Positions 11,729 through 63,712 of a DNA stretch of 64,000 bases are shown piece after piece. Under the pieces are notes generated by a model, which ran no database searches, was not told the origin of the DNA, and was given only the letters and a program-made list of their open reading frames with translations. The translations under genes and the position numbers were made by a program. Numbering within the stretch: position 1 is the first letter of the stretch; every line of letters starts with the position of its first letter. The DNA is taken from the NCBI GenBank assembly GCA_964106645.2, contig OZ067041.1, one strand, 5' to 3'. The stretch is from Podarcis pityusensis. Lineage: Eukaryota.

Positions 11729-11985
11729 NNNNNNNNNNNNNNNNNNNNNNNNNNNNNNNNNNNNNNNNNNNNNNNNNNNNNNNNNNNNNNNNNNNNNNNN
11801 NNNNNNNNNNNNNNNNNNNNNNNNNNNNNNNNNNNNNNNNNNNNNNNNNNNNNNNNNNNNNNNNNNNNNNNNNNNNNNNNNNNNNNNNNNNNNNNNNNNN
11901 NNNNNNNNNNNNNNNNNNNNNNNNNNNNNNNNNNNNNNNNNNNNNNNNNNNNNNNNNNNNNNNNNNNNNNNNNNNNNNNNNNNNN
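11729..11985. other. Assembly gap (257 N) in ADPRHL1 intron 4
   Basis: Run of N. Confidence 1.
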
Positions 11986-13006
11986 GGATTAAGTTGTATA
12001 GGTCTGGTCTGCTTTTGACAGAAGGATGCTGTCACTCTTCTTGCACGATTCCAACCCTGAGTAAAATATGCAAGACTCCTAAAGCATGCATCTGTCATTA
12101 TGGAGTGAAGTGCAATGCTATTTTAGAAATAAATAAAGGGGACGACATTTTAAAAAGCCTGCCTGAAACAAATGTGAGCCCCTTTTCTCAAGGGATCTCT
12201 CCTTTTGAATTATTCAGTCAATTTCTTTTGTTTTTGTTTTCTTTAAAAAAAGCACATTTGTTTAATGTTTCCTGTTCTGCATATTCTCACTCTGTAGTTC
12301 TCAGAGGCAACTTTACTGCTAGGTAGCCACAAGTGATCACCTGTGGTAGCACTTAGTACAGACAGATGTTTGCTATATGCTGCAGAAGATGATGCCTAGA
12401 ACTTCTTTGACAAAAGTCAGCCTTCTGCTCAGGGACAGCATAGTGCAAAGGGTTTCAGGGCTGTAAAGAAGAAAGGAAGGGGAATGAAGCAAGGGAAAGA
12501 TGGGGAGGAAAACCATATGTCTAAGGCCATAGGTAAATAACAAGAGGCTAGTAAGAAGCATCTCTCAAGTGCCTTTGGGGGGAATCCCAAAAGCAGAAAG
12601 CTGAGCAATGTGACTGTGAGGGAACAGGTGTTGGGAGGGAAGATCCTGACGAGCAAATAGTCAGGTAGGTGGATGAAAATGACTGGCAGGTCAAGGATTT
12701 CCAGGATCAGCTGTGATACAGAATGTGCGACATCAGAGTTTCACCTACTTAAAAGGCCTAAGGTATCCCTGGCTCCCTCCGGATTGCAACAAGAGATAAA
12801 GTAACTTTTCAGTCAGCAGGGATCAGTAAGCTATTTGCAGGGGGATAAGAAAATTATGTTTTTGTTCCTGTCTTCAAAGTGCAAGTGGTACACATACTGA
12901 GAAAATGAGCATAGCCTGCCTTTCTCAAACTGAAGCAACTTCACAAATGACTTTTTCATAATCAGCAGCAATCTGGTGTTTAGGAAAAAAAAGTTTTCCT
13001 CCAGAC

Positions 13007-13143
13007 CAGCCTTTCTCAACCTTGAGTCTCCAGATGTTTTGGGACTACAGCTCCCAGCTTCCCTGTCCACTGGTCCTACTAGCTTAAGGATGATGGGAGT
13101 TGTATTCCAACAACATATGAGGACCAAAGGTTGAGAACAGCTG
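13007..13143. mobile_element. Palindromic hAT-type MITE (~137 bp)
   Basis: Fold-back structure; 8-bp TSD ctccagac / ctctagac; same family as ~40162-40304, 45213-45348 and 60021-60156. Confidence 0.8.
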
Positions 13144-13870
13144 CTCTAGACTCAATATATAAACTGTGCTGCAAATGTTTGTTTTGCTACAGATACAGTG
13201 GTTCAGGAAGGTATGCTGAATATTGGTGGCAGAAACAAAGCTACAGCAATGGATGCTGCAGAAGTGGCAGGGATGTTGCTTCCTGTAGGAAAATGTTTCA
13301 TGTGAAGCACCACCAGTTTATAAAGTGCACCCTCTCTAGTTTTAAGCATCTTTTGGGTGCATACTCGGAAAAAGCTGCACAAATGGGTAGAGATGCCCAT
13401 CTTAGTTTATTTGCAGAGGCTGCCTTCTGAAGATCATACTGCAAAAAAAAAAAAAGGTGTTACTGCCAGCTGCCTTATCAGGTAGCATACAGCCTGCACT
13501 CAAAATAGCTCCTGTTGAGACTTGGGAGGGCTTCTTATGCTTTTGCTCAGTATTCAGGACCCAGTAGTAATTGCTGAATGGACTACAGTAAAAGTTTGTT
13601 TGTAGGTTTAATAGACTCTGTGATCTACATTCTGGTTTTCCAAAATGTGTGTCTGGTGGCCCTAATTATTTGTATTTAAATCTATTGTATTAAAATCTAT
13701 CCCCCCCTTTTTTTACATTGTGAAGATAAGCTAATTAGTATTGTTGAGAGGCTAAGAATAGTTGGACAGGTTTTATTTAATTTTCTTCATGAGAGTTCTG
13801 TAAATTGGATTTTGTCATTCATGCTGTTGCACTGAAAGAACCTATTCAAGATTAAATGTACCATAATTAA

Positions 13871-16630: not shown

Positions 16631-16856
16631 CAGTGGTACCTCAGGTAACATACGCTTCAGGTTACAGACTCCGCTAACCCAGAAATAGTGCTTCAGGTTA
16701 AGAACTTTGCTTCAGGATGAGAACAAAAATCGTGCTCCGGCGGCGCAGCAGCAGCAGGAGGCCCCATTAGCTAAAGTGGTGCTTCAGGTTAAGAACAGTT
16801 TCAGGTTAAGTACGGACCTCTGGAACGAATTAAGTACTTCACTTGAGGTACCACTG
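16631..16856 (-). mobile_element. Tigger/pogo-like MITE, inverted copy of 1524-1748
   Basis: TA TSDs, CAGTGGTACCTC TIRs; interior is the reverse complement of the 1524 copy. Confidence 0.9.
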
Positions 16857-23158: not shown

Positions 23159-23290
23159 TAAAAATAAAAAATAAAGCGGTATATAATCTTGTTTAATAAA
23201 TATAAACACATTAAAACCAGTAAGGAAGTAAAAGCAATGTTGATGACTTTCCCTGGACAAAAACAACAACATTCGTTTTCTTTTATGCAG

Positions 23291-26200
23291 CAGAAGTAAA
23301 GGTACAAAGCTGGGCAGTGATAAGGTGCTGGTTGACCCCATAGTGCTGAAGAAGAAGCTCAGTAAGATGTCCACAGAACTAGGTGCATTTGCTGTCCTCA
23401 GCAGCCTTCTACTTTACCTCACAGACCTCCTATCCAGCCGACCCCAGGTCGAGAGCAAGAAGGCCAAGTGGCTCGAAGGGATAGAGAACAAGGTGAACTC
23501 GAGGCGCGAATGCCATAGCGCACATGGCGGCATTCGTCCCACCAAATTCCAGCTTCTGCAATCGAGGTTCATGAACAACAACCGCGAGGCCTACAGGAAA
23601 AGGTCGAGAGAGGTTGGCAAGCTGGTCGTTAAAGAAAAGCAGAACAGAAATGGGCTAAACTCCATTGTAAGCAAGCTGGACAAAAGCTCCTCAAAAGAAG
23701 GAGAAAGCCCAGAGATAACACCCCACGATAAAGTCAAATGGGTCTGCTCAACTGGGAAAAATACTGTGAAGAATATCCTGAAGAAATTCTTAGTTGCTGA
23801 GGAAAAAGAAGCTAAAGAAAGAGAAAAGCAGGTGGCTCCAAAAAAGAAGACCCCAAACGATAACCTGCCCAAGATAATCAACAAAAACTCTGTCTTGTCC
23901 AAACTGAAAGAAAAGTTTGAACAAAGCAGTAATATCTGTTCAGCCATTGAGGTGAAATCTTTGCTGCCGCGCAAAGGCGAGAGAAAGAGCAAAAAAGGCC
24001 CAGAGAGAAAAAAGATTTGCAAACCTGAAATAAGAGTGCTTGAAAGGAAACTAAGGACAACCACAATTGTCAACAGCCCTCAGCCTCAACAGCTGGTATT
24101 CACAACTGTCCCTACACCTAAATTCTGTGTTGCTACTGAAATTAGTCACCCTTGGAGCTGGGCTACAAATGCCAAGTCCGCCACTCAGCCTTCTGAAGTG
24201 GGGAGGCCAAAAGACACCCAGAAAGCACCTGGCATTGGGTCGCATGACAGCAAGATACCAGAAAGCATGACACATAAAGGGCAACTAGGAGGACAGTTGC
24301 AAAACAAGCATCATGAAATGCCTAAGGTGGTGGCTGACAAAAAGGACATTGTCAAGAGTAATGTAACTCCTACAAGCCCAGGTTCTAATCAAGACAGTGT
24401 TCTTCCTTCACGTGAAAATGTGTCCCTTGTTGATTGCATTCCTCCTTTATCTAAGGACAGCTTAGATCACAAAGAGAACATCATACCGCCTGTGGATGAT
24501 ACCTTTTCCAGGTCCAGAGACAAAAATGCAGCAAAAATCATGAGCAGAGAAAACATACCTACTAACGACCTCTCTTCTAATCCAGCTGAAGGAGTTCATG
24601 TACATAGTCACCAGGAAATGAAAGAGGATGGGATTCCTGGCATACCAGAAGGCATGTTCAGGCCAAAGGAGACAGAAATAGAATTAGCAGAGCCTATAAA
24701 AGATCCCCCATTCACCAGCCAAAAATGTTTCTCTGAAAAGAAAGTGTTGGAAAATATTCCACCATTTCTCTCTCCTGTAGCTCAGGCATCTTGTAACAGA
24801 GAGCCTCCAATAAAGGACCAGCAATCAAGTGTTGAACCTGCAGCTGTTCACAAAATGCCTCCGCTTAAGCCAAGTCAAGATAACGCACAAAGTTTGGGGA
24901 GCACATTTTCTGACACGGTTCAGAACAAAGAGAAGCTGCCTGATAAGGAGGAACTATTTCCTAGCCTTAACAAAAGCGACCATGCGGGTAAAGCAAAAAA
25001 GGGAGTGCTACAGCCATCGAGAAGCCAAGGTGAGCCATCTGATCAACAGGCAGAAAGGGAGCATTTGCCCAAGGAGCCACAATCACATCCAAAGCTGAGC
25101 CAACAAAATAACCCTAGCTCAAACATATCAAAACAGACTTTAGATCAACCACACCAAACTCCTACTTCAAATAGGAGCCAGAAAGACAACAATGATTTAA
25201 AAGGAAATGATTTTGAAAAAGAGCTTTGCCCTTTGACTGGCGATTTAGATAAATCCAGCTGTGTTAGAGCAGCAGAGAATACTAGCAAAGCTGAACTGCG
25301 CTCAGATAATGAAAAGACAAATTCTGAAAACAAGAGCAAAAAGGGAAATAGTAGCTTGAGCCATTTGGATACCTCTCAGAGGCTGCCGGAAGAATTCATC
25401 AGACACGAAACTGGCAATCTGGAAAAGAATCCTACACCTCCTTTTCAAAAATCTCACTCATCCTCACTAACCGACTCAGCAAATCCAGAAGGCGATACTC
25501 CAGAAGTCGACAGACCTTGGTGCAGTGTTGGAAACCTCCAAACCCCAACATCAAATGCAGTGAAAAAGAAAGAGAGCTGTATTGTAAGAGATAATGCAGC
25601 CAGTCCTAATTCTGAGAAACACCACTTCCCTTCTCCAGCTGAATTGCTGAAGCCCAAGGGGGCACCTGGGCAAGACAGCAAGCCAACAACAAGCAATTTG
25701 TGCAATGATTTAATTAAGAGTGAAAACCATGCTGTAGAAGTTGAGGGTATGAGTCCCCAGACCAGGAAGTATCAACCAGCCTCAACAAAGGAGACTAGAA
25801 AGCGTGAAATTAGTCCTGTAGGGGAGGCAAGCCCCGCGCACAATGTGGAGAAGCAGCAGGTGCCCTTAGGAAACAAAACTGGGAAGCAGGAAAGCATAAA
25901 AGTGATGGCAGAAGTAAAGCCTGAGAAAAGCGGATTTCCCTCCCCAAATGAAACAGTAAAGCAGGGGAACAGTGAAGGAGGAGAAAGAAATCTACTGAAA
26001 GAAGTACAATGTCTAATTCCATCATCTGTTGACAGAAAGGGGCAAGATGATAAGGTAACAGAAGAGAAAAACTCTATAGTGGGAGGTAAGAAGTTGGTGC
26101 GTAACTCCAATATGCCCCAGAAATTAATAAAAAGTGACCTTGCAGAGGGTGGTGGTGAAAGAGCAGGTTCACAGCAGCTGACCCCACCAAAGCATAAACC

Positions 26201-27707
26201 TAGCAGGCCGGGAGTGTTACCTTCCCCAGATAACTCAAAATGTCAAACACCATCAAGAGATCCAGAAAAAGGTGGAACTGTTGCATCAAAAGATGAAAAC
26301 GCTGCAAAACACCAGCTCTCCACACTCAAAGAACCAGTGAAGTGTGATGATAATGCTAACCAAAGAAATGCCCAGGATAGCCTTAAGACTAAGAGTGACA
26401 AAATACCATTATCTGGCAAGAAAGTGAAACCTGAAAGCAAATTGGGGAAGACGAAAGAGAACACTAGTAATTCTGGGCAAAACCAGTTACCTTTGGAAAA
26501 TGAACTTCCAAAGAGTAAAAAGGCTGAGCCAATGAAACCTGCAGCAGAGAAGTCACAGAAACCATCTTTAGATGACTCTAGAAATGGACTTCCAAAGAGT
26601 AAAGAGACTACTGTAAGCAAATTGGGGAAGACAAAAGAGAACACTAGTAATTCTGGGCAAAACCAGTTACCTTTGGAAAATGAACTTCCAAAGAGTAAAA
26701 AGGCCGAGTCAATGAAACCTGCAGCAGAGAAGTTACAGAAACCATCTTTAGGTGACTCTAGAAATGGACTTCCAAAGAGTAAAGAGACTACTGTAAGTAA
26801 ATTGGGGAAGACAAAAGAGAACACTAGTCATTCTGGGCAAATCCCGTTACCTTTGGAAAATGAAGTTCCAAAGAGTAAAAAGGCTGAGCCAATGAAACTT
26901 GCAGCAGAGAAGAAACCATCTTTAGATGACTCTAGAAATGAACTTCCAAAGAGCAAAGAGACTACTGTAAGGGAGAGAGGTACTTTGTGCAACCTTAAGG
27001 AACATCAGATACCAGCACCAAATGAATCAAAGACTGAGCCAGTAAATCTTGCAGCAGGGGAGCCGCAGAAACCATCCTTGAATGACTCTAGAAACCATGA
27101 GGATATTGCTAAGAATGAAAAACGGGCTTCATGGAATTCTAAGAACCAGCAGCTACCCTTATCAGATGTGAAACAGGAGAGCCATCAATATAGTGTCACA
27201 GCAGGGAAACAGCAGCAGCAACCACAACCACCAAAGGATTATGTCAAGCCTAAATCTAGTATAAGAGATGGAAAGCATATGCATCATAAATCAGAGAAGT
27301 ATCGTCTTCCTGCCTCAGATGAACTGGGAGTGCATGAAAAGAATGCTAGTGAAAGGAAGGGTTCCTTGGCTCCACTTTCAAGTCACGATAGGACCATGCA
27401 AAAGAAGAAAACACTATGTGAGACTGATACTGGTCCCAAATTGGGCTCACCGAACAAGACATGTCCTGCAGAACAGAGAAAACCACAGCGTAGTCCTCCT
27501 GGCAAGTACCAAACTCTGTCAGCAAATGTGCTATCAGAGCAAGGAAGTGGGGAATCTCAAAAGCTCGGGGCTGATGCAATAAGTCAGAAAGCTAGATCAC
27601 TAGCCTTGGAAAAATACATAGCAGAAAGCTACAGTGAAGAACTAGTACCTTTGTCTATTAAACCAATGGTTGTTCGTGTGATTGATACAATTAAGCTTGA
27701 TAACTAA
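23291..27707 (+). CDS. ADPRHL1: ADPRHL1 giant terminal exon 8 (long isoform; 1,471 codons of extension)
   Basis: Polypyrimidine tract plus tgcag| at 23290. Exon-7 AA + C restores the frame of the 1,460-aa ORF (23325-27707). The N-terminal part (AVLSSLLLYLT, RPTKFQLLQSRF, KNTVKNILKKFLVAEEKEAKE, SVLSKLKEKFEQ) matches my recollection of the human long ADPRHL1 isoform. Confidence 0.88.
26436..26969 (+). repeat. Coding tandem repeat, 180 bp (60 aa) x3, plus a degenerate partial fourth copy at ~27030-27095
   Basis: Units start at 26436, 26616 and 26796 (SKLGKTKENTSNSGQNQLPLENELPKSKKAEPMKPAAEKSQKPSLDDSRNGLPKSKETTV). The third has an in-frame 6-bp deletion. Confidence 0.95.
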
Positions 27708-32548: not shown

Positions 32549-33444
32549 AGGATATAAATATTCATTGCTGTATCAGACCAAGATCTATGCAGTTTTGCCA
32601 GAGTTCAGCATTTTTTGCCAATGGTGTATACAACCAAATGAAATCTGCAGTCTTTTATTAGCTTGTTGTTATTGTTCAAAATGTTGGGACAGCCACTGTT
32701 AAAAGGCAATCAGATTCACCCTTGATCAAAGACTGAAAGAGCAGTTACATATATTACAGCTCTTGGACAGACAAGACAGGAATACTGAAGACATGACACA
32801 GCACACGTTGTTCCCTGGGACGTTAAGTAAGGCGTCAGTTTTACATTTTTTTTCAAAGTCAGAGGATTAGCAGGTCTTCCTGGCATCAGAAAAACATTCC
32901 CCTCCCCTGGCCTACACATCTCATAAACATGGGCTTAATTTAAAACAGGGCTCACTGGGACAGTAGCCTTAGGATCTAGGTCCAATGCCAAGCGGCAAAA
33001 CCTGAATATATGAAGCCAGGATATTGATCCACTGGATTATCTAGAGATAAAGTTATTTCCTAAGTTTGGTACTTCTTAAAAAATGGACAGAGGTTCTGCG
33101 TCTTGGGTATTTAAGGTGGGAGTATAGCTCATCTGTTGTACACACTATTGTTGCCAACAGTTAAAATGAGCTTTGCTAGAAGGTATGTATGCCAAAGGGA
33201 TAAATCCCTTTTATTTGTGGCTAAAGAAGATGATCTGTGTTGACAACCTTGCTGCCATTATTGTGAAGGATAAAGAAGCGTAACAATCCCAAGTGCTCTG
33301 AAAATATTTCTGTCCTCTCTCTCTCTCCCACCACTCCACAATTTTAGCTGTAATGTATCAGTATGCGGAGCTTTCTGCCTCGTTGTGCGTCTTGGTTTGT
33401 TTGTTTTTGGCACACAGATTTGCCATTCCTCATTAAAATATTGA

Positions 33445-33615
33445 TAGAATCATATAATTGTAGCATTGGAAGTGATCCTGAGGATCGTCTATTCCAACTC
33501 CCTGCGATGCACGAATCTTGAATAAAGCATCCATGACAGATGGCCGTCCAACCTCTGCTTAAAAACTTCCAGTGAAGGACAGTCCACAACCACCTGAGGG
33601 AATCTGTTCCACTGT
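33445..33615 (-). mobile_element. CR1 LINE 3' fragment
   Basis: atagaatcatataattgtag...catccatgacagatggccgtccaacctctgcttaaaaacttccagtgaagga, similar to 1390-1512. Confidence 0.7.
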
Positions 33616-34260
33616 ATTCGTTCCACTGATAGCCGTACTCGTTATGACTTGGTTTAAGTCTCTTTTAAAGGTATTCACTACATCTTGTAATATATACCCA
33701 TCGCGCTGGTTGTTGGTTCCTACTCAGGGGAATGTTATATACCGGTATTCTCCATCTTGCCATAGCTAGAACTACACTATAGTAGAATACAACAATTGCT
33801 TAGTTTCAAAGCTCACCAGTGTCAGACCTCAAAATCTGTTTCATACTCCAGCATTTATACAGTGGTGCCTCGCAAGACGAAATTAATTCGTTCCGCAAGT
33901 CTCTTCGTCTTGCGGGTTTTTCGTCTTGCGATGCACGGTTTCCCATAGGAATGCATTGAAAATCAATTAATGCGTTCCTAGGGAAACCGCCTTCAGACCA
34001 GGTCCGGGGACAGTCTGTCCCCGGACCTCTTCTGAAGGCTGGGGGGGGGGATAAGGGCTTTTCTTCCCACCCCCAGCATTTAAAAAAACCCCGGGACAGC
34101 GGAGGACTTCTCCGCTGTCCGGGCAATCTTAAAATGCTGGCGGGCGGCATTTTAAAATCGCCCCAGACAGCGGAGGACTTCTCCGCTGTCCGGGGCGATT
34201 TAAAAGCCCCTGGGAAGGCAGGCAGGGGGGACAAAGACTTTTGCCCCCCGCCAGCCTTCA

Positions 34261-34716
34261 GAAGGTGTTCCCGCCCCCTGCCCCGCTTCGGAGCACCGTT
34301 CCGAAGCGGGGCGGTGGGGGAAGGTGTTCCCACCCCCCCACCCCGCTTCGGAGCACCGTTCCGAAGCGGGGCGGTGGGGGAAGGTGTTCCCACCCCCCGC
34401 CCCGCTTCGGAGCAGCGTTCCGAAGCGGGGCGGTGGGGGAAGGTGTTCCCACCCCCCCGCCCCGCTTCGGAGCACCGTTCCGAAGCGGGGCGGTGGGGGA
34501 AGGTGTTCCCGCCCCCCCGCCCCGCTTCGGAGCACCGTTCCGAAGCGGGGCGGTGGGGGAAGGTGTTCCCGCCCCCCCGCCCCGCTTCGGAGCACCGTTC
34601 CGAAGCGGGGCGGTGGGGGAAGGTGTTCCCGCCCCCCCGCCCCGCTTCGGAGCAGCGTTCCGAAGCGGGGCGGTGGGGGAAGGTGTTCCCGCCCCCCCGC
34701 CCCGCTTCGGAGCACC
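34261..34716. repeat. GC-rich minisatellite, ~60 bp x ~7.6, each unit a hairpin
   Basis: Unit contains ccgccccgcttcgga-(7 nt)-tccgaagcggggcgg, a perfect 15-bp stem. Confidence 0.95.
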
Positions 34717-35325
34717 GGGAGAAGCGATCTCCCCGCAGCCCCTTGCTTCAAAAGAGGTCCGGGGGCAGCGGGGAAGAAGCGCTGCGCTTCGCGCTGCCCC
34801 CGGACCTCTTTTGAAGCAAGGGGCTGCAGGGAGAAGCGATCTCCCCGCAAACCCTTGCTTCAAAAGAGGTCCGGGGGCAGCGGGGAAGAAGCGCTGCGCT
34901 TCGCGCTGCCCCCGGACCTCTTTTGAAGCAAGGGGCTGCAGGGAGAAGCGATCTCCCCGCAGCCCCTTGCTTCAAAAGAGGTCCGGGGGCAGCGGGGAAG
35001 AAGCGCTGCGCTTCGCGCTGCCCCCGGACCTCTTTTGAAGCAAGGGGCTGCAGGGAGAAGCGATCTCCCCGCAGCCCCTTGCTTCAAAAGAGGTCCGGGG
35101 GCAGCGGGGAAGAAGCGCTGCGCTTCGCGCTGCCCCCGGACCTCTTTTGAAGCAAGGGGCTGCAGGGAGAAGCGATCTCCCCGCAAACCCTTGCTTCAAA
35201 AGAGGTCCGCGGGCAGCGCGAAGCGCTTCGCGCTGCCCCCGGACCTCTTTTGAAGCAAGGGGCTGCAGGGAGAAGCGATCTCCCCGCAAACCCTTGCTTC
35301 AAAAGAGGTCCGCGGGCAGCGCGAA
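34717..35325. repeat. GC-rich minisatellite, 112 bp x ~5.5, each unit a long hairpin
   Basis: Units start at 34717, 34829, 34941, 35053, 35165 (103 bp) and 35268 (partial). Stem gcagccccttgcttcaaaagaggtccgggggcagcg pairs with its reverse complement over 36 bp. Confidence 0.95.
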
Positions 35326-35715
35326 GAGAAGACCCGCTGTCCCCGGGGCAAGCTTCGTTTTGCGAAGCAAGCCCATAGGGAAATTCGCCTTGCGAGGCAA
35401 CTCGAAAACGAAAAAACCTTTCGTTTTGCGAGTTTTTCGTCTCGCGAGGCGTTCGTCTTGCGGGGTACCACTGTACTGCCAATTCTCCCCCTACCCCTGC
35501 CCACCTCCCCACAGGTTGGGAGTGCCACATGTACAGAGTGCCTTCCTAACCCTATGGAATAACCACAGCCATAGATCAGGATGGGGGGGGGGGATAGAGG
35601 GAGACCTGTGGTCTGAGTTCAGCACCTCTCAGCTAATTTTATTCAGCTGCAACTCTCTACACCAGGGATAGCAAGTTGCCTGGAAGTGACTCTAGCAAAA
35701 TAAGCTGACATAAAA

Positions 35716-40161: not shown

Positions 40162-40304
40162 CAGTAGTTTTCAACCTGTGGGTCCCCAGATGTTGTTGGA
40201 CTACAGCTCCCATCATCCCTGATGGGACGATAGGCCTTGCTAGCTAGGGATGATGGGAGTTGTAGTGCAACAACATCTGGGGACCCACAGATTGAGAAAG
40301 GCTG
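40162..40304. mobile_element. Palindromic hAT-type MITE
   Basis: tcaacctgtgggtccccagatgttgttggactacagctcccatcatccct ... ggatgatgggagttgtagtgcaacaacatctggggacccacagattgaga. Confidence 0.8.
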
Positions 40305-43488: not shown

Positions 43489-45212
43489 CCAATTATACAA
43501 TTGTATTTGATTTAAAAAATGTTTGTGACCAAAGAACAACCAGACAGATTTGAACAAACATTAATGAGTTCAAGCAGAGTAGAAAAACAACAACAATGGG
43601 TGTTGAATATTTGGTTTATGCCCCAGTCTCAAGACATGGCTAGAAGGTAAACAATACAACAACCTTGCTAAAGATAAACAGGTCCAGTGCTGTTTTTTCT
43701 AGGAAAAGAGGTGCAGGAACTCAGTGTGAACGCCTCCCTTGTTGTCTTGTAATGGCAATGGTGCCCACCTGAGAGGTGACGGAACTTATTTCCAGTGAGT
43801 TCCAGATGAAAAAAAAAGCCTTGAGCAGCTCAATTTCTGATCAGTGCCTGAACGGGAGGCTCTCTGGCAACCCTATCTTGTATACCACCTTGATTCATGA
43901 ATGGAAGAAAGGTGGGATCTAAAATAGAATTTTACACTGCAAATCTACCGTCTCGTCATTTACATTTGCAAGCTCTTCTGGGGGCCCTTTTTGGTTGAAG
44001 AACAGGGAAAATAATGCTTTATAAATAAATACTCTTAGCAAGCATTTCAAAAAATAATAATATCCTAATGAGTTCCCCTTCTCCTTTTGCATTTCCCAGT
44101 TTATCCATTCCATTCCTCCAGATCCGGTGCCATCATCCTCTTCCTGTGAAATTATTACTGGATGCCACTTTCCTTAACAATGTAGTTACCCAATTATGCT
44201 TTTGCATATTGCCTGCAAGTACTTAGCAAACCAGTCATTAAAAAAAAAAGGAGCGAATGCCACAAACATTCCACAGTGGAATGTCACAGGACCACGTACA
44301 CACAATTCATAAAATTGCACAGGAACACATTACATCTAATAACAGATGCAGCGTAGTATGGGATTCAGGTAAAGGTGTTTGTTGCACTTCATCTCAATGC
44401 AGTCATTTTTCTTATATACATTATTCTTATTAAACATTCCCTATGAACTAGATCTTCCTGAATGCATTTTTTATTTTCTCTGGATTCTTATGATGAGCTA
44501 CAGATCTTCTTTCTCAAGCACGATATGGTACCACCAGACTGGAATAACTAGCCTTACAGTACTTGCTACTGCAAGGGCCTGAAGGGGGTGACTACTGCTC
44601 CGATGCAAACATCAGCCTCTATAGTCTCCAAGGTGAGCATAGTAATTTAAAAAAAAAAAAAAACTAACACCAGACTTGGGGCATTAAAGCAGATAGCACT
44701 GTTGCACAACTCCAACTCATCATGCATAAGCTTACATAAATACACTGAAATGCCATTTTGACTACCGTAGTCTCCTGGGAACTTGCTGCAAAAAAAGAGA
44801 GAAATAAATAAAAGGAGGGAAGCTGTGAAGTACCATATCTAGTCACAACAGCATCAACAGTTGCTAAAAACAAAGGTGTCTGTGCAGTGGTCAATAACAA
44901 CCCCTCTCCAAAATCCACATCTTCAAAGCACTGTCTAGACTGTGGTCCAGGCAGTTGCTTCCTGTATTCTTGGTGGTCAGCTGTACACACAGCCAGGAAC
45001 ATGTTGTGCATTTAACCTATACTGAGGCTGCAATCCTAGGCACGCTTATATGAGGTAACCCCCCATCTCCCCCGGCACATTTGTAAGTTGCTTCAGGGTA
45101 AACACCCATCTGATCGCATTGCCCATCTGCACTGCAGGAAATCAGACACACTGGAACAAAATTCTCAGTCTTCAAAATGGCAAGCCAACCAGACAAGGCC
45201 TTGTCTTTACAC

Positions 45213-45348
45213 CAGGCATAGGCAAACTCGGCCCTCCAGATGTTTTGGGACTACAACTCCCATCATCCCTAGCTAACAAGACCAGTGGTCAGGGATGATG
45301 GGACTTGTAGTCTCAAAACATCTGGAGGGCTGAGTTTGCCTATACCTG
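45213..45348. mobile_element. Palindromic hAT MITE (136 bp)
   Basis: Long TIR CAGGCATAGGCAAACTC; perfect 8-bp TSD ctttacac. Confidence 0.92.
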
Positions 45349-45349
45349 C

Positions 45350-45352
<3 letters not shown>

Positions 45353-45390
<38 letters not shown>
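45353..45390. repeat. (AC)n microsatellite
   Basis: Direct observation; begins inside the right-hand TSD. Confidence 0.95.
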
Positions 45391-49982: not shown

Positions 49983-52387
49983 CGTGTTTCTTCTTCTCAA
50001 TGTTTTACAGTAATTAGGAAATTCGTAGTATATTGCATCAGATGACAAGTCTGGAAACTATCTTACTGTTTTCTCCTTCTTGGGTGATGGCTGAAAATTA
50101 TAAGGGAGCAAACACATATCTGCTTAGAGTTCAGCAACTGGCAATCCCAAGGGTCTCCCTGAGATTACTTGTCCCCTCCAGGGTAACATAGCAAAGACAA
50201 AGGTGGGGCCATTGGATTTGCTAGCACCATGCTTTTTTGGGGGGAATATAGAGGAATTGGATTGGCCTACTATCCACCTACTTGCTACAGTCGGTGTGTC
50301 TATGTTGAAGTATTATTTGATTTGTCAGCTCTGCAAACTGCAGGGATAGAGGAATAGAAACATTAATATGTGCTCTTTTTGTATGCAACTTTTACAGAGA
50401 AAAGAGAAACAGATTTACTTCCATCTTGTTAAGCATGCTAGCACGGGCAAGTTCTTTTATTTTAAACATGCCTTCATCAATGAAGCGGCCATTAAAAGGA
50501 AATGCAATACATAATCTGACAGCAACAACATCTGCTCTCTATTTTTGAGGGCTATTTTTGCTTTTGGCCATTCACATTTCAGACATCAAAGACTGGAGAT
50601 CAGAAGTGCCCAAGAGCAAAACAACAACAACAAAAAACAACAAAAAAGCTCAGAAATATATATTTGTTTATTTCTGTGCTTGGAGAATCTTTTGGTGACC
50701 TTTCCTATCACCACTTGCTAGTCCCCAAGCCGGATGCTCAGCTCAGAGAGCATGTTATATAAAGGGAATGGGCATGAGCAGCCAAACTGAGCAGGATTTA
50801 ACCCTCTGCTCGAGTGACAACAGCTGATGGGTGTGGTTTGGGGATAATGGCTTTTTAGGCCAGACTGAACTCCCTGGTAAGGCAAGATTGCGCCATGGGG
50901 CAGAGGCTCTCTACTCCTGCTTTAGCAGAAAGGGCATCTTCCTGTGCAAAACACCTGATTGTTGCTAATTTGCTTAACCCACTGCAACCCCTTGTACCCC
51001 ATGCAAAGCTGCTCCTGAGGGTTGGGGGACCTTTTGCGATAGTATTAGATATGAAGCAAGGGGCTGCAGTAGGCAGGGGGAGAAGGGTAAAAATAACATC
51101 AGGTGCCCAACCCACATGAACAAGTGGAAGTGCTTTCTGACAGGCAGAAGCTGGTGGCCCAGTACTGCCAGTTCATAGTGGTGCAGCAAGACCATAGAAT
51201 TTTACGGCTGACATGGGCATGCAACTGACATTTCTCTTCTGCCTCAAAACCCTTGCCCCAGTCATTCCATTCTTTTACAAACTGTATTCCTTAGGGTAAA
51301 AAAGAAAAGAAAATTTGCCAACTCTGATAAAAAGAAAGAAATGCATTTTAAGCTCACTAAAAAAACAACAACCATGGCATCGCCATGACTGCAGAAATAA
51401 AATGCCCTTCTTACAGTGTTATAAAATGGGGTTTGCTTCCGCTGTCCTGAGTTCCTCAAGAATAAGTGGGTGAATGTCTGAAAAGGGAATGTCTAAACGC
51501 CTGCTTAGAATTTTTAATCTTTGTTGGAAGCCACCCAGAGTGGTTGGGAAGACCCAGCCAGATGGGCGGGGTATAAATAATAAATTATTATTATTATTCC
51601 CTTCACAAAAAAAATAAATAAGAAAGCAAGGATGCAGCATTGGTCAGCATCAGCCCTGGTGGGTCCCACGATGCCTTTTTTTTCATCCAGAACTCAATTC
51701 TGGCACCTGTCAGCTGGGCACCATTGCCATTATAAGAGAACAAGCGATGTGTTCATGGTGAGTTCCGGCACCTCTTTTTCTACAAAAATAGCACTGCTCG
51801 TGGCATGCAGGATTCTGACCATGGGGGGGCACTGTCCATCATCACCTGCCATTCTTTTGAGGGTCGTCTGGGAAGCCCCCCCCCCCCCCCCCCGGAGTAT
51901 AGGATCCTGAATTTTTGTCCCCAGGGTCCAGCCCCAGTTGCACAAGTGAAAAGCCACCACTGGATACAACCCTTTGTGTATGACTAGTTGTGCCATGGAT
52001 GGAGCTGCACATTCAAATAGCACATCCAATTGGAAGCACGTTTACCTGGGAGTAAGTGCCACTGAATACAGTGAGATTTCTGAATAAACATGCATGGTAC
52101 AGCTGTGTTAACCATGTTGTTTTCCTTCTGGCTTTCTTATTCCAACAGGCTTTGGGGAACTGACTGTTTTTAATGAATAAATGCTGTGTTGCATTTATTG
52201 TTAATTATCTGTATGTGTTTATTAGAGCTTTTATATACAGACAGAGTTTTAATTCTATTAATGTTTAATTGTTTTTTTAATTCAGTTTTCGCTTTATTTT
52301 TTAGCTGTTCCTATCTTACCAGTATGCCGCCTTCCCTGCCAAGGAAAAAAGGCAGGATAGAAATAAATATATAATAATGAGTAATAG

Positions 52388-52907
52388 CAATGACAAACCT
52401 AGACAGGATCTTAAAAAGCAGAGACATCACCTTGCCAACAAAGGTCCATATAGTTAAAGCTATGGTTTTCTCAATAGTGATGTATGGAAGTGAGAGCTAG
52501 ACCATAGAGAAGGCTGATCGCCGAAGAATTGATGCTTTTGAATTATGGTGCTGGAGGAGACTCTTGAGAGTCCCATGGACTGCAAGAAGATCAAACCTAT
52601 CCATTCTTAAGGAAATCAGCCCTGAGTACTCACTGGAAGGACAGATCCTGAAGCTGAGACTCCAATACTTTGGCCACCTCATGAGAAGAGAAGACTCCCT
52701 GGAAAAGACCCTGATGTTGGGAAAGATGGAGGGCACAAGGAGAAGGGGACGACAGAGGACGAGATGGTTGGATAGTCTTCTCGAAGCTACCAGCATGAGT
52801 TTGACCAAACTGAGGGAGGCAGTGGAAGGCAGGAGTGCCTGGCGTACTCTGGTCCATGGGGTCACGAAGAGTCGGACACGACTAAACGACTAAACAACAA
52901 CAACAAC
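52388..52907 (+). mobile_element. BovB (RTE) LINE, 5'-truncated 3' fragment
   Basis: RRIDAFELWCWRRLLRVPWTARRSNLSILKEISPEYSLEGQILKLRLQYFGHLMRREDSLEKTLMLGKMEG...HGVTKSRTRLND; (CAA)n tail; 12-bp TSD aatgagtaatag (52376-87, 52908-19); premature TAG at 52498-52500. Confidence 0.95.
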
Positions 52908-52915
52908 AATGAGTA

Positions 52916-52946
<31 letters not shown>

Positions 52947-53912
52947 TGTATTTAACTCTCCCAGTGAAATCAGTAGGACTTTAAAGCAATGTATGATGCA
53001 GTCTTGCAAATTAGACCTCTAATTTGACTATATATTTTTATCTAGGAAACCAGCACTTTCTAAAGCCATATCGTTCACAAGGTGTGTGTCTATCAATAAT
53101 TATCTGAATTAACAGCAGAAAATAAGAGTTATAACAGACCGTCAATGCAAGAGTTTTTAATTGAGCTTGACAAAGGAAAGCGTGCAAGTCAAAACGTTAA
53201 GTCACATTTTGATTTCACTTTTTTAAAAAAAATAAAAATGGCAATAGTAGAGATCTCACTAATCCTTGTTATCGTACAGACCGTTCTGGGTGTGTAAACC
53301 CTCTCACAGAAACATAGCTCAGGGTCCTTAACTTGCCCCACAGAAGCTTAAGCGGCTCTGCTTTTAGTGTTAGTGAAATGCTGTTATTTAGAGGTCATCT
53401 ATTTTAGAGCCGGGGAAATTCTTAAGCTACTTAAAAAAACGATCTTAGCTCTTACTGATCTTGAGACACTCCCTGATCAACCTAATCCCATGTGATTTGG
53501 GCGAGAACCCTGGAGCCGACACTCTGCCAGAAGCATGAAACTTGGATACAAAAACCCCCAAAGCAGTACAGTTCAGCATCTACTGCTAACTACTGGGTCA
53601 ATGACTCACAAAAGGAGGAGGAAGTGGAAAATGGGTTTTCTGTTGAATGAATTTCTTTAGTGGGATCTGTATCTTCTATTCTGCAGGCAGCATCTCTGGT
53701 TCAGACTACAGGCACAGCAACCATTCCAAGCAGCCACTTCCTTCAGCTTCTGCTTCTTATCTGAAGCACTTGTGACTCTGTGGGATCTTGGCTTCGGAGA
53801 GGCAAAGTCCTGTGTTCAAATCCCACCAGGGATTGGCCTTTCTACAAACTGGTCCCCAAAACAATTGAATCCCTATTTGGCTAGCTGTTAGGTGGAAACT
53901 GCATTTAAAAAA

Positions 53913-54041
53913 AAGGTAAAGGACCCCTGACAGTTAAGTCCAGTCATGAATGACTCTGGGGTTGCTGCACTCATCTCGATTTACTGGCTGAGGGAGCCGG
54001 CGTTTGTTCACAGAGTTTTTCCGGGTCATGTGGCCAGCATA
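53913..54041 (-). mobile_element. Sauria SINE 3' fragment
   Basis: aaggtaaaggacccctgacagttaagtccagtc...ccgggtcatgtggccagcat. Confidence 0.8.
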
Positions 54042-54799
54042 AGCAGCCTATTCGGATGAGCAACATAACATCAGAAAGGGGTACTCACAGATAACTGCAC
54101 CTTTGCAGCTCATTCTGTTCAAGGAAGCAGATATACTCAATATTCTTAAGTGATACATCCTTTTCTGAAGTTACGCCACTCAGGTGAGTAGCCACTGATG
54201 TAAGCTTCTTTCATAGAGTGCTCCTCTTCCATAGAAGTGTAGAGTTGGAAAGGACCAACCCCTTGCAATGCAGGAACCCTGTTCTGGGTGGGCTTGAACC
54301 ACCAACCTTCTGGTTAACAGCCCATTTTGCCATATTTCTTAATTACCTGTTTAAAATCTGCAGGAAACCCTCACATGCCACTACAGCCAACTAGTGTATG
54401 ATGATTTATGTTGTGAACTGCCCTGAGATCTATGGGTATAGGGAGGTATACAAATTTAATAACTAACTAAATAGAATAAAATCACGCCAACAGAGTCCCC
54501 AGCAAGGAATCTGGCATGTAGGAACAGACCAACACAGGTTTCCATCCAATTCCTACACAGAAGTAAATGCCTCAAACCACGCCCCCCTTCATTTCAATGG
54601 GGTTTACTTCCAGGGGTGTAAGTGTTTGTTGTTTATAGTGTCCCTAGGGTGTGTGTTGCTTTAAGAGCACAGGTCCTTGACCCTAGGAGCTTACAGTCTA
54701 AAACAAACAGCTGGAGGAAGTGAGGCAGGGGTAAACAAGAAAGCAAAGGTGCAGTTGTTTGCATACGCTCAGACTTGGTTATAGGCTGTGTTACAGTAG

Positions 54800-55820
54800 G
54801 GCGTGCATGGGAATTAGGGAGCTGAGGTCACACCCTTTGCTCTGGCACGTGCGTGGACCGGCTGCGTTGACCCACGAGATGAATGCACGCTGCTGCTTCC
54901 TTTATTCCCACTGCACCTGCTCCAAAACGGAAAACGAGTCCCGGCCCTCCGCCTTGCTGCAAACTGAAACGCTGCCCTCACTGCCCTGGGTGAGGCTTCC
55001 CTCCCCGCTTGGCTCGCCGCCTCCTCTGCCGGCAACACGAACAGCAAGAGGAACGTGGGGAGAGAATTCCTTCTCCTCCCCAAGGTTTTTATGGGGAGGT
55101 GCGCGCGCAACCCGAGGCGAAGAAGGAGCGAAACAGCAGGTTGAGGAGGAGCCAGTCGCGCGCTCAGCCACCCGGAGAAAGGGAGGCTTCTCAGCTGCGC
55201 TCCTAAATCGCTCTACCTCAGGAGCCGTTTGCCCCGGCGCTGTCCTTAAGGAGGCGCAATTCCCAACGCGGCTGGCGGTGGGAGCCGCAAATAAGCTAAA
55301 CTCTCCCACACTGGCGCGGGGGGAGAAAACAGACTGGTCTGAAAAAGCGCAGACAGAAAGGGATAAGCTCCGCGCGCCGCTCTGTTCCCTGTCCTTGAAG
55401 GGCGACGCTGTGGAACTTTGGAGACGCTTCTTTTTCCTCCCACCCCCCTCCAATGTGAACACATTTTCTACTGCAGGCTGCCCTGCTCTGGAAACCGCCC
55501 GCTCCCTTCTCTCCCACCTCGCCAAAGGCACTTTTTCCCCAGACAACTTCGGAGCGTAAGAAGAGGGAGGAGGCGCGCTCTCCTTTGATAAGAGTGGCGG
55601 GACTTTGACTCGTCTCCAGCAAGGGGAGGAGGAGGAGGAGGCGGAGGCGGCAGCGGCGAGGCCGCGCCGGGCCGGGCGGGGGTTCGACCATTCTGTGCTG
55701 GAGAAACCCGGCGTACTCCCTTCCCATGGACGGGGAGGAAGAGCGGCGGGCGAAGCGCGAGAACCGCGAGAGCAACGTCCACAGGTAGGTTGCGCCCTTG
55801 CAGAATAATGGAGAGCGCTC
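54800..55820 (+). promoter_or_regulatory. CpG island: GRTP1 promoter and 5' UTR
   Basis: Sharp rise in GC and CpG, GC boxes (gggcggg near 55674) and a (GGA/GGC)n leader; ends just after the first coding exon. Confidence 0.85.
55726..55784 (+). CDS. GRTP1: GRTP1 exon 1 coding part (59 nt, ends in phase 2)
   Basis: cccATGG start; MDGEEERRAKRENRESNVH-R; donor CAG|gtaggt. Phase fits exon 2 (AG+A = Arg, then VDPYGF). Confidence 0.8.
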
Positions 55821-57359
55821 TTGGCTTGCCCTCCTGCTTTTTGTATGTGTGCCCTTAATATTCTATATAGTAATATTCTCTCTATATATCATGCCACAAA
55901 CGTAAATATATATATATATATCTTCCTGGGTTGGTGTTAAGTGGCCCCTCAGGTGTATCTGTGATACAGCAGGAAGTTAAAAAGAAAAAAAAAAACAGCA
56001 GCAGGATTTGCTTGAGAAAGGCAACCCAGAAAACTTATTTACGTTTGGGGTAAATCGATGCTGGGAGTGCCCCATTCCCTACTGAAAGCTCTTCTTGCGT
56101 GTGGTTTTCAGCTAAAGTTTGTATTGCATGAATTCCCCTTTGGTTACTGAGTACACAGTGGGGCAGTTATTTCTGCCCTTCAGGTTTCAGTTGGCAGTGT
56201 TGGTATGGCTGTTTAATTCACTGGATAAGTTAATTAAGCTAACTACATTGCCCCCCCCCCCAATAATTAAACTTTCAAAACCCTCTTACCAAAGATCTTG
56301 ATTTGTTACTCTTTCAGGTTTTCTTATAATAAAACAAACCTTTCACTGCCAGGATTAGTCGTTTACAGCTGCCACAGTAAACACCTACTCCCTTTGGAAG
56401 GTTACATGGAAAGAATGAACTTGAAAATTTCAATCCACTTGAAAATTAATTTATTTCAGTTCTTTACACTTAGTGGCATCTTAACTTCATAAAATAGCAG
56501 ATTTAATTTTTTAAAAAATCTCTCCCCAATCCCCCCACCCATCATCCCTATTGTTATTGCCACATAGAACTTTAGGAAAATGCTTAATTTGTGAAATAAA
56601 AATTAAAACTATAATAGACTCTGTCCCGAAAGGCTGTCTAAAATACTTTAAACAAGAAGCCCTTGTTATTATAAGAAATATCAAAACAATTTGTGTACTG
56701 TAGTACTCTATAAATACAGAAATATTATAAATATGGGAGCGCAGAGGTTGGTAATCACTGGAGAATATGGAAAGGCTGAATGCTGTCTAGATGGAAGTTA
56801 TGTTTATAAATTTCCTTGTAGCTGGAAAAAAGGCTCAGTGGAATTTCTGCAGAGAGATAGAGACATCAAGGATGGGCTGACCATCATTTCCCTGTTTATC
56901 ACCTGACAGTGGCTAATGGCTATGCAAGGAAGTAACATAAGAAGAGCCGCCCTGCTGGATCAGATGAAAGATCCATAATTGTTCCACATCCTGTTCTCAA
57001 CAGTGGCCAACCAGAGGCTTATGGGGAGTCCACAAGCAGGACTTGAGTGCACCAGCACACTCTCCCCACTTGTGAATCCTAGCAACTGGGATTCAGAGTA
57101 ACACTGCCATTGCAGTATTCTTTGTCCTGGTGCATATTATCAGGCACAGCCGTTTATACAATACAGTAGCAGAGGCAGATTAAGGAGAGCGCAACCAGTT
57201 AGGCGTGGAGCCTTGGGGACGCCATAGCTGCAATTTAGAATGGAGCATGAGAGGTGCTGAATTTTTTAATTTGACACCCCAAGAGCTGCCACTGACTAAT
57301 AAAAGCTTTTCTCCTGAGCTGTACCACTTCAGATTCTATAATGATAATGATGATTTATT

Positions 57360-57672
57360 ATTTGTATGCCTCCCATGTGGCTGGGTTTCCCCAGCCACTC
57401 TGGGGGGCTTCCAACAAAGATTAAAAATACATTAAAATGTCACACATTAAAAACTTCCCTAAACAGGGCTGCCTTCGGATGTTTTCTAAATGTCAGGTAG
57501 TTGTTTATCTCTTTGACATCTGATGGGAAGGCGTTCCACAGGGCGGGCCCCACTGGGTGCCACTACCGAGAAGGCCCTCTGCCCGGTTCCCTGTAGCTTT
57601 GCTTCTCGCAGGGAGGGAACCGCCAGAAGGCCCTTGGCACTGGACCTCAATCTCCGGGCAGAACGATGGGGT
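57360..57672 (-). mobile_element. L2 3' fragment in GRTP1 intron 1
   Basis: Minus-strand LRSSAKGLLAVPSLREAKLQGTGQRAFSVVAP plus 3' UTR; same family as 3076-3890. Confidence 0.8.
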
Positions 57673-59648
57673 TCTAGTTGGAACCTCGCTTGTTTGAATG
57701 CCATCCTCCCAACAAGGCTGAAAAGACCAAATGGAATGTGGAAACATGAAGTCTTAAGTTACAAGGAAACACAGTGCGATACTTTTTTTTTTTTTAACGG
57801 TGCAGCATAGAAACATATTGTATTAGTAGTGCAGTCCAGGAAAGGCTTGCTCACCCACACTGCTGTATGTATAAATTGCGGTTGAGCAATTAGGAGGTAT
57901 TGTGGCCATCTCTTTTGGAAGTGTACTTTTTAAGAATTACATTATTATCCAAAGTCCCATGCGTGCTTTTCTGGGAGGCTTGAGAAAGTTGTGCCTTTTG
58001 CGTTTGAATGCTAAATATACAACTTGTTTGTGCTGAAGCGCTGAGCTTTCCTGAACTTTTGCAGTGATTAAATCTGCACAGTTATGCATGCTTAAGTTCA
58101 GTTGAAACCAATGGCACTTAAGCACATGTCCTGTAGCTGAACATTTCCCTTTATAAGTACATGGTAAAACTGATACAATTTATTGGAAATGTCTTAAGCG
58201 GTGATACTTTATTCTCTCGTTTGTCTGTTTTCAAGCAGCTAATAGCCAGAGGCTAAAGGGAGCAGAAAATGGATTGATTGACCTGCCTTATGTATGCATT
58301 TAGATAAGCAACCATGTAAATCAATATTGGTCCCATTATACAGAGCTTGATGAGGTTCGGAATTTAATGCAAAACACACAAGTGACCTGAAAAAGGCCTT
58401 GTCTACTCTCTGCAAGAGTGTGCTATCACTTGCCTGAGTAAACCATGACTGTAAAACTGAGGTAAAACTCTGGTCACTGAAAAGATTGTTGATTTGTAAC
58501 AAGTACTAATAAAAAGAAAAATAATCAGGATTAAAATTACAAAACATTCAATGATATTACTCTGTATAAATGGTCCATCAATGTCCTGGTTAGATAAAAA
58601 TAATTACCAGGTTATAATGTGCTTTATATACAGTGTAATCTTTACAACAGCCCTATAAGATAGGTTGAAAGTGTTACTTGGAAGGAAAAAATAAGTATGT
58701 AAAAGAATTCCCTGGATGCCAAGATCCACGTTTGGGGCAAGTACTCTTTGGTGAGAGAACTCCAGCAGACATAAAAATCACAAAATACGCAGGAAAGTAA
58801 AGTGTGAAATAGATGATTAAAATATGTCCTTCTAAGTTCCTTCCAAAGTCCCCCTCTTCCCTTAGCATAGAAAAAGTCCACAAACTTGGTAAGTTAAACT
58901 CTCCAAAGGTTAGGTTCATATGCTTTTCCACACAGCATTTAAAAAGCATAGGCAGTAAAACTTGGCTTAGTTACACTGCTGAAAGTTCCTAAATCTCTGG
59001 TATAGAAACTCAGAAGAGGCTTACTAGAGCCATGTGGTCTGATCTTGGAGCAACTAGCTCAGACCTCGCATGTTGAGCTTCTGGGGTCTACTTAGGTACA
59101 GCAGTAGGCCCAATTATCTTCCTCCCAAGGGGAGTGACCTAGCTAAGCCTGGCAGGACCACATACTCTATGGCATTAACCCTTCCATGCATTAATTAGAC
59201 TTAAGCATGTTAGTTATATGAGGCTGGTTATCCCTCAGGGTAGAACCAACTGTAACCTTCCTTAGTGTTGCCATTGTAGACTCAGCAGGGAAGATGATGG
59301 GGGCAAAAATAAATTTGCTCTTCCTCTCATTTGTTCTGGCTCCACCTACTGTTGGCCTCTTTGTCTTCTTCCCTATCAGTCCTAATTAGCATCAACCACC
59401 ACCAAAGCTAATGGGTGTTAGCTGGGTGTCTACAAAAGCAGACACATCTTCTAAACTTCTGGAAGGTTTATTGAGCCCATGTTGGCATTTCCAGTCGATA
59501 AAACATTTTTCATTCTGACATTTTAAAGTCCAGTTTTTCCTCCCTCTAAGCTGCATTTCTGGAAAAAAAAGTTTTAATTTAGGTATGTGAAGTTTATATA
59601 ACTACATAAAACTAATATGTGTGTACAATGATTTCCCTTCTGTTGCAG

Positions 59649-59801
59649 AGTGGATCCATATGGGTTTGAAAGGCCAGCAAACTTTGACTATACATCATAT
59701 GAAGATTTTTTTTTCTAGATACCTAGTGATACTCACTAGGAGGGCAATTAAATGGTCCAAGCTTTTAAAGGGTAACCGCGGTGTACCGAAAAGCTTAAAA
59801 G
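59649..59801 (+). CDS. GRTP1: GRTP1 exon 2 (153 nt as assembled; contains a +1 frameshift in a T9 run)
   Basis: tgttgcag|A GTG GAT CCA... gives VDPYGFERPANFDYTSYED, then after a frame change FFSRYLVILTRRAIKWSKLLKGNRGVPKSLK; donor G|gtaata. Matches recalled human IDPYGFERPEDFD...FFSSYLVTLTRRAIKWSRLL. Confidence 0.93.
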
Positions 59802-60020
59802 GTAATATTCCAATATGAAGCTGTTCCTTGTTTCCTTCTCCTGTATGAAATCTTGCTTGAATCTTTTCAATAGGAGTTTTTCAATAGGGGGAGGTGGACA
59901 TTGTTTTCACATTTATTGTAGTGCCAGTGTCTTACACCTACCCCACTTTAGACCTTACTTTGATTCTTTCTGAACAAACAATGTAATCTATACAAATGTA
60001 CTCTGAAGTATATTCTAGTG

Positions 60021-60156
60021 CAGGCTTCCTCAACCTTGGCCCTCCAGATGTTTTTGGCCTACAACTCCCATGATTCCTAGCTAGCAGAACCAGTAGTCAG
60101 GGATGATGGGATTTGTAGTCTCAAAACATCTGGAGGGCTGAGGTTGAGGAAGCCTG
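60021..60156. mobile_element. Palindromic hAT MITE inserted into an older short palindromic repeat (~59975-60212)
   Basis: TIR CAGGCTTCCTCAACCT; perfect 8-bp TSD ttctagtg; flanks rejoin to tactctgaagta...ttcagtagggcttactcccaggtaa. Confidence 0.9.
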
Positions 60157-63553: not shown

Positions 63554-63712
63554 TAAAACGCTATATCAGGAAAGGCATTCCAAATGAGCACCGTGCACTG
63601 GTTTGGATGGTGGTGAGTGGTGCTCAGTCCCACATGGAACAAAACCCTGGATACTACCAGAAATTACTTGAAGGAGACAAAAATGAGAAGCTCGTGGACA
63701 CAATTAAGACAG
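63554..63712 (+). CDS. GRTP1: GRTP1 exon 3 (159 nt, phase 1-1; start of the TBC domain)
   Basis: ttttgcag|TA...ACAG|gttagc. Translates VKRYIRKGIPNEHRALVWMVVSGAQSHMEQNPGYYQKLLEGDKNEKLVDTIKTD. The gene continues beyond the window. Confidence 0.96.

Follow-up and report, generated by a model that had tools for sequence, protein, structure and literature searches.

At positions 33860-35473 of a 64,000-nt stretch of the Podarcis pityusensis genome (assembly GCA_964106645.2, contig OZ067041.1; hereafter, the window) lies a 1614-bp element that is filled with hairpins, which raises the question of what this element is, how its interior was built and whether it serves its host. The element is intergenic and lies between two genes, with the ADPRHL1 stop codon ~6 kb before it and the next CpG island, near 55 kb, ~20 kb after it. 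We consider it probable that this is a gene-less Tigger-type element of a high-copy lacertid family, recently inserted and moved in trans, with an interior built by fold-back copying followed by slippage or unequal exchange and with no predicted host function. Its parts are, from left to right:

33858-33859, no strand: left TA target-site copy; contigs of relatives lose their match one base further on, as an empty TA site predicts.
33860-33882, plus strand: left terminal inverted repeat, 22-23 bp, of Tigger type (20/22 against the right end, 19/23 against the Colletes gigas Tigger end).
33870-33931, no strand: the inner 12 bp of the terminal repeat, present three times (once forward, twice reversed) within nested hairpins (fold z -10.6).
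33936-33989, no strand: AT-rich hairpin, from stem search and folding.
33989-34052, no strand: first inverted pair of a shared ~40-bp arm, with a 14-bp perfect stem at 34000-34028.
34029-34264, no strand: tier (a), two hairpin modules enclosed by an outer inverted pair; each of these is a diverged version of the shared arm.
34261-34717, no strand: tier (b), a 60-bp array of 7.7 units, with 15-bp arms alternating in orientation and spacers of 7 and 22/23 nt.
34717-35321, no strand: tier (c), a 112-bp array of 5.5 units, the last ones 103 bp long, with alternating 36-bp arms and spacers of 21 and 19 nt that carry mini-hairpins.
35322-35352, no strand: remaining piece of the shared arm where the interior meets the right end (0/300 shuffles against tier (a)).
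35354-35473, minus strand: right end, whose nested hairpins contain the 12-bp motif five times, terminated by the right terminal inverted repeat (35451-35473).
35474-35475, no strand: right TA target-site copy.

The ends are the main guide to the class of the element. Its 22-bp terminal inverted repeats match at 20 of 22 positions and have TA on both sides; an earlier note on this DNA, which had called repeats and duplication intact, was right about the TA, and the repeats are near-perfect, with two mismatches. Twenty of 23 letters of the right repeat are as in the published end of a Radix auricularia Tigger. The inner 12-bp motif occurs eight times in the element, near its two ends, and nowhere else in the window (both at two mismatches or fewer). 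By established Tc1/mariner-pogo biology, transposase binds terminal and sub-terminal sites, and the sub-terminal copies of the motif are likely to be such binding sites. A reading of this stretch as a coding gene can be rejected: none of the six overlapping frames tested across the element contains a Pfam family, and the one frame compared with proteins has no relative among 724 candidates. The window also holds no autonomous partner with the same ends. Given the TA duplication, the ends resembling those of published autonomous Tiggers (at 20/23 and 19/23 letters) and the lack of a transposase gene, the element is, as far as its sequence tells, a non-autonomous Tigger (pogo-type) transposon without coding capacity, as had been proposed. 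Collections of metagenome, viral and prokaryote sequence contain no match to a 24-letter pattern of the end, which is unsurprising for a repeat from a lizard.

Two other classes of transposon were considered and rejected. Helitrons and Helentrons (of the DINE-1 kind) have no true paired terminal repeats, carry a 3′ hairpin and make no TA duplication; the element has paired Tigger ends and TA on both sides. In Foldback-type elements the two halves are long inverted copies of each other; here, end-to-end complementarity is limited to ~60 bases and the inversions are local. At 1614 bp, or ~550 bp without its two arrays, the element exceeds the size convention for MITEs (up to ~600-800 bp), yet it works like a MITE with internal tandem repeats of the miDNA4/Xstir/DTC84 kind.

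Other short elements lie in the same window. Three more Tigger-ended non-autonomous elements (1-492, 1524-1748 and 16631-16856) share the outer end of the hairpin element, lack its inner 12-bp motif and have a hairpin cover of 0-3%. The latter two belong to one family and have opposite orientations; near the ends they are distinguished by duplications of 16-17 bp. At 40168-40298, 45202-45359, 60015-60162 and 13000-13150 lie small palindromic elements, with arms of 53-69 bp, that are probably members of other MITE families.

Perfect short-range stems take up 49% of the bases of the hairpin element, compared with 1-3% in its flanks and 5% in the CpG island, and the two hairpin arrays (60 bp × 7.7 and 112 bp × 5.5) make up 66% of its 1614 bp. 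We folded five parts of the element, each against 200 shuffles, together with two controls. The z-scores were -13.5 for the 112-bp unit, -6.8 for the 60-bp unit and -6.1 to -10.6 for the three other parts, with no shuffle (0/200) folding as well in any of the five; both controls gave z ~0.

The three-tier anatomy and its coordinates had been described in the earlier note, and we found every tier in its place, with corrections to some details. Tier (a) is indeed a 14-bp inverted pair around two hairpins (perfect stems of 11 and 10 bp, loops of 5 nt), though its true span, 34029-34264, is one base wider on each side than the 34030-34263 reported. In tier (b) (period 60, 7.7 copies, 96% matches), the period and the 7-nt loop are as described; a perfect stem of 15 bp is present in 5 of the 7 full units, and the first two have shorter ones, of 13 and 12 bp. 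Six four-tract G4 patterns occur on the minus strand of this tier and, by the same patterns, none on the plus strand. Tier (c) (period 112, 5.5 copies, 96% matches) shows all of the features attributed to it, namely 36-bp perfect stems, inner 7-bp hairpins and 6-bp hairpins between units. A 103-bp unit of this tier additionally holds a perfect 14-bp palindrome without a loop, at 35211-35238.

A point missed earlier is that most of these tiers are not independent, as they appear to descend from one arm. We compared 35 pairs of segments, each against 300 dinucleotide shuffles, and 8 pairs scored above all 300. Seven of the eight connect the left border hairpin, the tier (a) modules, the tier (c) stem and the right border with one another, and the eighth connects the two ends of the element. 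For the left border pair (33989-34052) against the 112-bp stem, for instance, 0 of 300 shuffles reached the observed score. Alignment of these segments yields a common G+C-rich arm of ~40 bp, present in both orientations. The tie of the 60-bp unit to this arm is weak (2/300 shuffles, among 35 tests). By these comparisons, a single ~40-bp arm underlies tier (a), both inner borders and the 112-bp stem, and the 60-bp unit is weakly related to it.

In both arrays, every 36-bp or 15-bp arm pairs perfectly with either of its neighbours, and the array unit is therefore arm, spacer, anti-arm, spacer. Two variants of the forward arm recur in tier (c), one in units 2, 5 and 6 and the other in units 5 and 6, and neither is mirrored in any of the five reverse arms (0/5). 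Because the variants are shared between units and unmirrored, the present tier (c) seems to have grown, or to have been homogenised, by copying of whole units, with pairing left unrepaired; iterated fold-back as the amplifier of this tier is rejected on the same ground. A perfect loopless palindrome is the kind of product made by template switching, and the one at 35211-35238 fits such an event.

From these observations we propose the following course. A Tigger transposase encoded elsewhere would bind the terminal repeat and the eight sub-terminal 12-bp copies, and move everything between the ends. Inside the element, the ~40-bp arm, whose homology across the tiers is observed, may have been copied several times in inverted orientation by template switching, which would have produced the arm/anti-arm pairs of both borders and of tiers (a) and (c). 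Together, an arm and its anti-arm would then make up a direct-repeat unit with two possible pairing registers, and such units, as the variant pattern suggests, would be amplified and homogenised as wholes. Structure-driven slippage or template switching had been suggested as the builder of the interior, and the shared arm and the array variants do point to structure-related copying as the likely one.

The hairpin element is a member of a high-copy lacertid family. Twenty of the 24 sequencing runs listed hold the element or part of it, 14 of them with at least half of the sampled words, and among these runs family words are found in 9 organisms and 11 studies. Together with the many different flanks at the left end, this bears out the suggestion that the transposon dispersed its repeats. 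Four of the 24 runs were compared over 32700-34300, a stretch made up of the left flank and 441 of the element's 1614 bases, counted from its left end. In both runs that cover the flank (2/2), the interior of the element has a summed contig depth far above the flank median, 6,400-22,000-fold in one and 11,600-26,800-fold in the other, and at the element end the ratio to the flank reaches 52,000-64,000. Such ratios indicate an order of magnitude only and do not count copies. If overlapping contigs are taken to inflate them 31-fold, a floor of ~200-370 copies is left.

Other copies of the family differ in their interiors. The joints, differences and loose ends that we describe are the best supported ones, beyond which there are 35 further joints, 115 differences and 1043 loose ends. 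Among the listed joints, 33992>34028 drops the 14-bp hairpin, 34109>34184 drops one tier (a) module, 34149>34077 runs backwards and repeats one such module, and others lead from 34259 or 34264 back to 34020-34023, entering another arm after tier (a). Past 34264, 56 contigs of the third DNA run, which has no depth on the unique flank, continue differently, and depth falls ~fivefold into tier (b), partly perhaps as an edge effect of the compared stretch. As tier (a) is itself an inverted pair, these short contigs cannot separate a head-to-tail repeat from a further inversion. The expectation that interiors vary is thus confirmed for tier (a), where modules are skipped, repeated or replaced in other copies. 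We also observed a sister subfamily that has the first 75 bp in common (to 33935) and then continues into a short tandem motif, with 482 RNA reads carrying that loose end. One end type therefore carries different repeat cargos, hairpin arrays in one case and a short tandem motif in the other.

Such abundance could reflect selection at the level of the transposon, in which folded single strands raise copy number, through aberrant replication, gap repair or better end pairing, and hairpin-rich variants out-replicate plain ones. This would fit the observation that nearly the whole element folds, ends included (49% in stems against 1-3% in the flanks), as well as the size of the family, and a fold-back amplification model does exist for the Angel MITE (PMC12628747). 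However, the low hairpin cover (0-3%) of the three other Tigger-ended elements in the window indicates that hairpins are not needed by the lineage, the arm variants of tier (c) are not compensated, and the sister subfamily has the same end and continues into a short-motif repeat instead. We consider such selection unlikely, and favour structure-related copying inside an element moved by its ends.

The insertion at this locus is likely recent. In the two runs that cover the flank, whose flanks are 2-3.5% different from ours, the match of the flank contigs ends exactly at 33860, and beyond it the contigs run on for 285 and 13 other letters. Because the right flank starts with the same base after its TA, this is the end point that an empty site predicts. 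Read from the geometry of the match end, the site appears to be empty in two relatives, which is why we regard the insertion as young.

The base composition of the element is consistent with this age. With a G+C content of 0.65 and a CpG observed/expected ratio of 0.88, compared with 0.28 in the rest of the window, it has the composition of a CpG island and is, as had been remarked, CpG-rich in an otherwise CpG-depleted region. Decay has nevertheless begun. Of four listed private differences from the family majority inside the element, three are CpG transitions, as are three of the four substitution types in tier (b), where 51 CpGs are left of the 56 expected; in tier (c) the CpGs are complete (9, 9, 9, 9 and 10 per unit). 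In the flank, CpG transitions account for 6 of 17 and 6 of 20 listed differences, though there are only 15 CpGs in its 945 bases. The earlier note had called the CpGs undecayed, which holds for tier (c), and had suggested a portable CpG island; the first is overstated for the element as a whole, and the second finds no support in a young copy in which CpG transitions are already present. The pattern is what a methylated region with a young insert would give, suggesting that the high CpG content reflects youth and not an unmethylated island, and that this copy is likely methylated like its surroundings.

In one raw RNA run, of which ~12 in 100 was read (151-nt reads, which do not bear on small RNAs; its species may differ from that of the window), reads fall on the left part of the element in both directions. 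Ninety-three percent of the matching reads run on unlike the window stretch, which points to family copies carried in many transcripts, and no reads in that run fall on the unique flank. None of 69 Rfam matches reached its family's gathering threshold, and these matches are generic hairpin scores. Directly to the left, 33440-33617 is a fragment of another very high-copy repeat that is strongly strand-biased in RNA (~895 vs 156 at 33510-33563).

These data bear on whether the element has been co-opted as a host regulator, be it an unmethylated CpG island, a G4 or cruciform site or a source of small RNAs, with ADPRHL1 or the gene after it as the target. Its CpG-island numbers, the G4 pattern on the minus strand and the presence of family sequence in RNA in both directions would all suit such a role, and MITEs at tissue-specific open chromatin have been reported in Xenopus (PMC12676858). 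Yet the site is apparently empty in two relatives and CpG transitions have already accrued; the element lies between genes, with ~6 kb separating it from the ADPRHL1 stop and ~20 kb from the CpG island that follows; the RNA reads come from many loci, and none of them falls on the unique flank in that run; and all 69 Rfam matches score below their family thresholds. We judge co-option very unlikely and a host function unsupported, and retain the reading of a recent Tigger-type insertion.

An origin of the arrays as pre-existing genomic minisatellites captured by the transposon, the model proposed for miDNA4 (PMC12628747), has a slimmer chance still. The weak relation of the 60-bp unit to the rest of the element would agree with capture, but homology connects the 112-bp stem with tier (a) and with single-copy sequence at either inner border, which points to an origin inside the element, and neither unit has a match of more than 18 bases elsewhere in the window. 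Finally, the arrays can hardly be an assembly artefact (collapsed or inflated repeats, or fold-back chimeras), even though other parts of the window contain an assembly gap and, probably, a homopolymer error: non-array words make up 52% of the distinct 31-mers (60% with junctions) and three organisms hold more than that (0.71, 0.67 and 0.64 of sampled words), so that array words are present in independent runs and the arrays are real in kind, position 34279, within the first 60-bp unit, lies in 61-84 contigs of each run, and the array units carry shared, patterned variants, the number of units at this locus being that of the assembly only.

The earlier note knew of no description of such an architecture. 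There are precedents, however, in transposons with internal arrays, palindromic units or several different arrays. One of these, miDNA4 of Xenopus tropicalis, was reportedly described by Scalvenzi and Pollet in 2014. It is likewise a non-autonomous tetrapod Tc1/mariner element with an internal tandem repeat of variable number, and differs in its length of 300-600 bp, its AT-richness, its mostly single unit and its proposed origin by capture (as given in PMC12628747, PMC9659126 and PMC12054243); the lacertid element is 1.6 kb long, has 65% G+C and contains two arrays of self-complementary units that derive largely from its own arm. Transposons with internal arrays are reviewed in PMC12628747 and PMC9659126, where the models put forward are fold-back (Angel), stem-loop (Xstir) and capture (miDNA4). 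In the Xstir/Xmix MITEs of Xenopus and the Angel MITEs of zebrafish, tandem repeats arise from MITE-internal sequence, as here, and the stem-loop and fold-back replication models for Xstir and Angel are the mechanisms that we propose for the lacertid element (PMC12628747, PMC3879986). Their hosts are different, and the models concern whole or neighbouring elements and not the serial inversion of an internal arm. In DTC84, from the clam Donax trunculus, the flanks enclose 1-5 core repeats in the manner of a cassette, the palindrome in each core repeat is the proposed driver of array change, and its ordered variants and distinct edge units are also similar; it differs in its AA target, a possibly Helitron-like nature and a palindrome of 12 nt in a 156-bp unit, whereas the lacertid unit is almost all stem (PMC3879986).

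Two more distant cases share part of this architecture. FEDoR of Rana temporaria is likewise large and non-autonomous, with several (four) internal arrays and nested inverted repeats, but it measures 3.5 kb, is present in 43 copies, has paired inverted repeats at both of its ends and target duplications that vary, and is assigned to no family (PMC12054243). The pithovirus M1/M2 repeats are also tandem palindromic units with TA as putative target, homogenised within a region; they reside in a giant-virus genome, and the units themselves are MITE-like and not cargo inside one pair of ends (PMC10664404). With the Tigger/pogo elements of PMC9219625, the lacertid element shares the TA duplication, short ends and the end matches of 20/23 and 19/23; unlike autonomous Tiggers, it has no transposase, and its interior consists of hairpin arrays. 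That source gives ends of 17-26 bp for Squamata, and its Table S1 records TA for the family and has no row for Podarcis, Lacerta or Zootoca, while PMC7325037 calls 'Tigger' itself polyphyletic.

Our literature search returned no description of this lacertid family; most subscription journals, Dfam, Repbase and the repeat libraries of genome papers lay outside its scope, and an unnamed consensus may well be catalogued already in Dfam, Repbase or such libraries. PMC10058329 describes a different Tc1/mariner fragment in Zootoca, and the available parts of PMC7017282 and PMC9297572 do not bear on the family. The kind of element is already known, and such a degree of nested self-derivation was without description in the literature searched.

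As a single insertion, the hairpin element is ordinary. What is new is its membership in a high-copy family, its young insertion, the shared arm of its tiers, the rearrangement of modules among copies and a CpG decay that has already begun. The origin of tandem repeats inside transposons is still argued from few cases, under fold-back, stem-loop and capture models, and a young family with hundreds to thousands of copies in at least 9 related organisms with long-read genomes would make these models testable on many independent copies. If the interior does trace to one arm, the birth of hairpin minisatellites by template switching could be read step by step. A bolder picture is of a lacertid Tigger lineage that acts as a palindrome-elaborating machine, with one arm repeatedly inverted, units amplified in thousands of copies, each of them a dated insertion, and hairpin content that may raise the rate of copying; we think this doubtful. 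Dispersed in their thousands, such 36-bp interrupted palindromes could be prone to breakage or recombination, and could also hamper genome assembly and the annotation of CpG islands in wall lizards.

The rest of the window is dominated on its left by ADPRHL1, whose exons extend from 1040 to 27704 on the plus strand and one of whose introns contains an assembly gap of 257 N (11729-11985). Its giant last exon (23247-27707, ~1480 codons) includes a 180-bp in-frame repeat in three copies (26431-26971). Part of this frame is 98% identical to Podarcis ADPRHL1 clusters and 96% identical to Zootoca, and one Podarcis isoform aligns at lower identity over the 180-bp repeat, which suggests a difference in repeat number. 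On the right, a CpG island with a short first exon (54900-55900) and a downstream exon (59650-59800) belong to a gene that we take, from synteny, to be probably GRTP1. The frame of the downstream exon changes within a T-run, probably through a homopolymer error of the assembly, and 1-bp differences in the C-runs of tier (b) may for that reason be errors too. Short frames at 3195-3764 and 52497-52893, which resemble the 3′ ends of LINE reverse transcriptases, are probably truncated retrotransposons.
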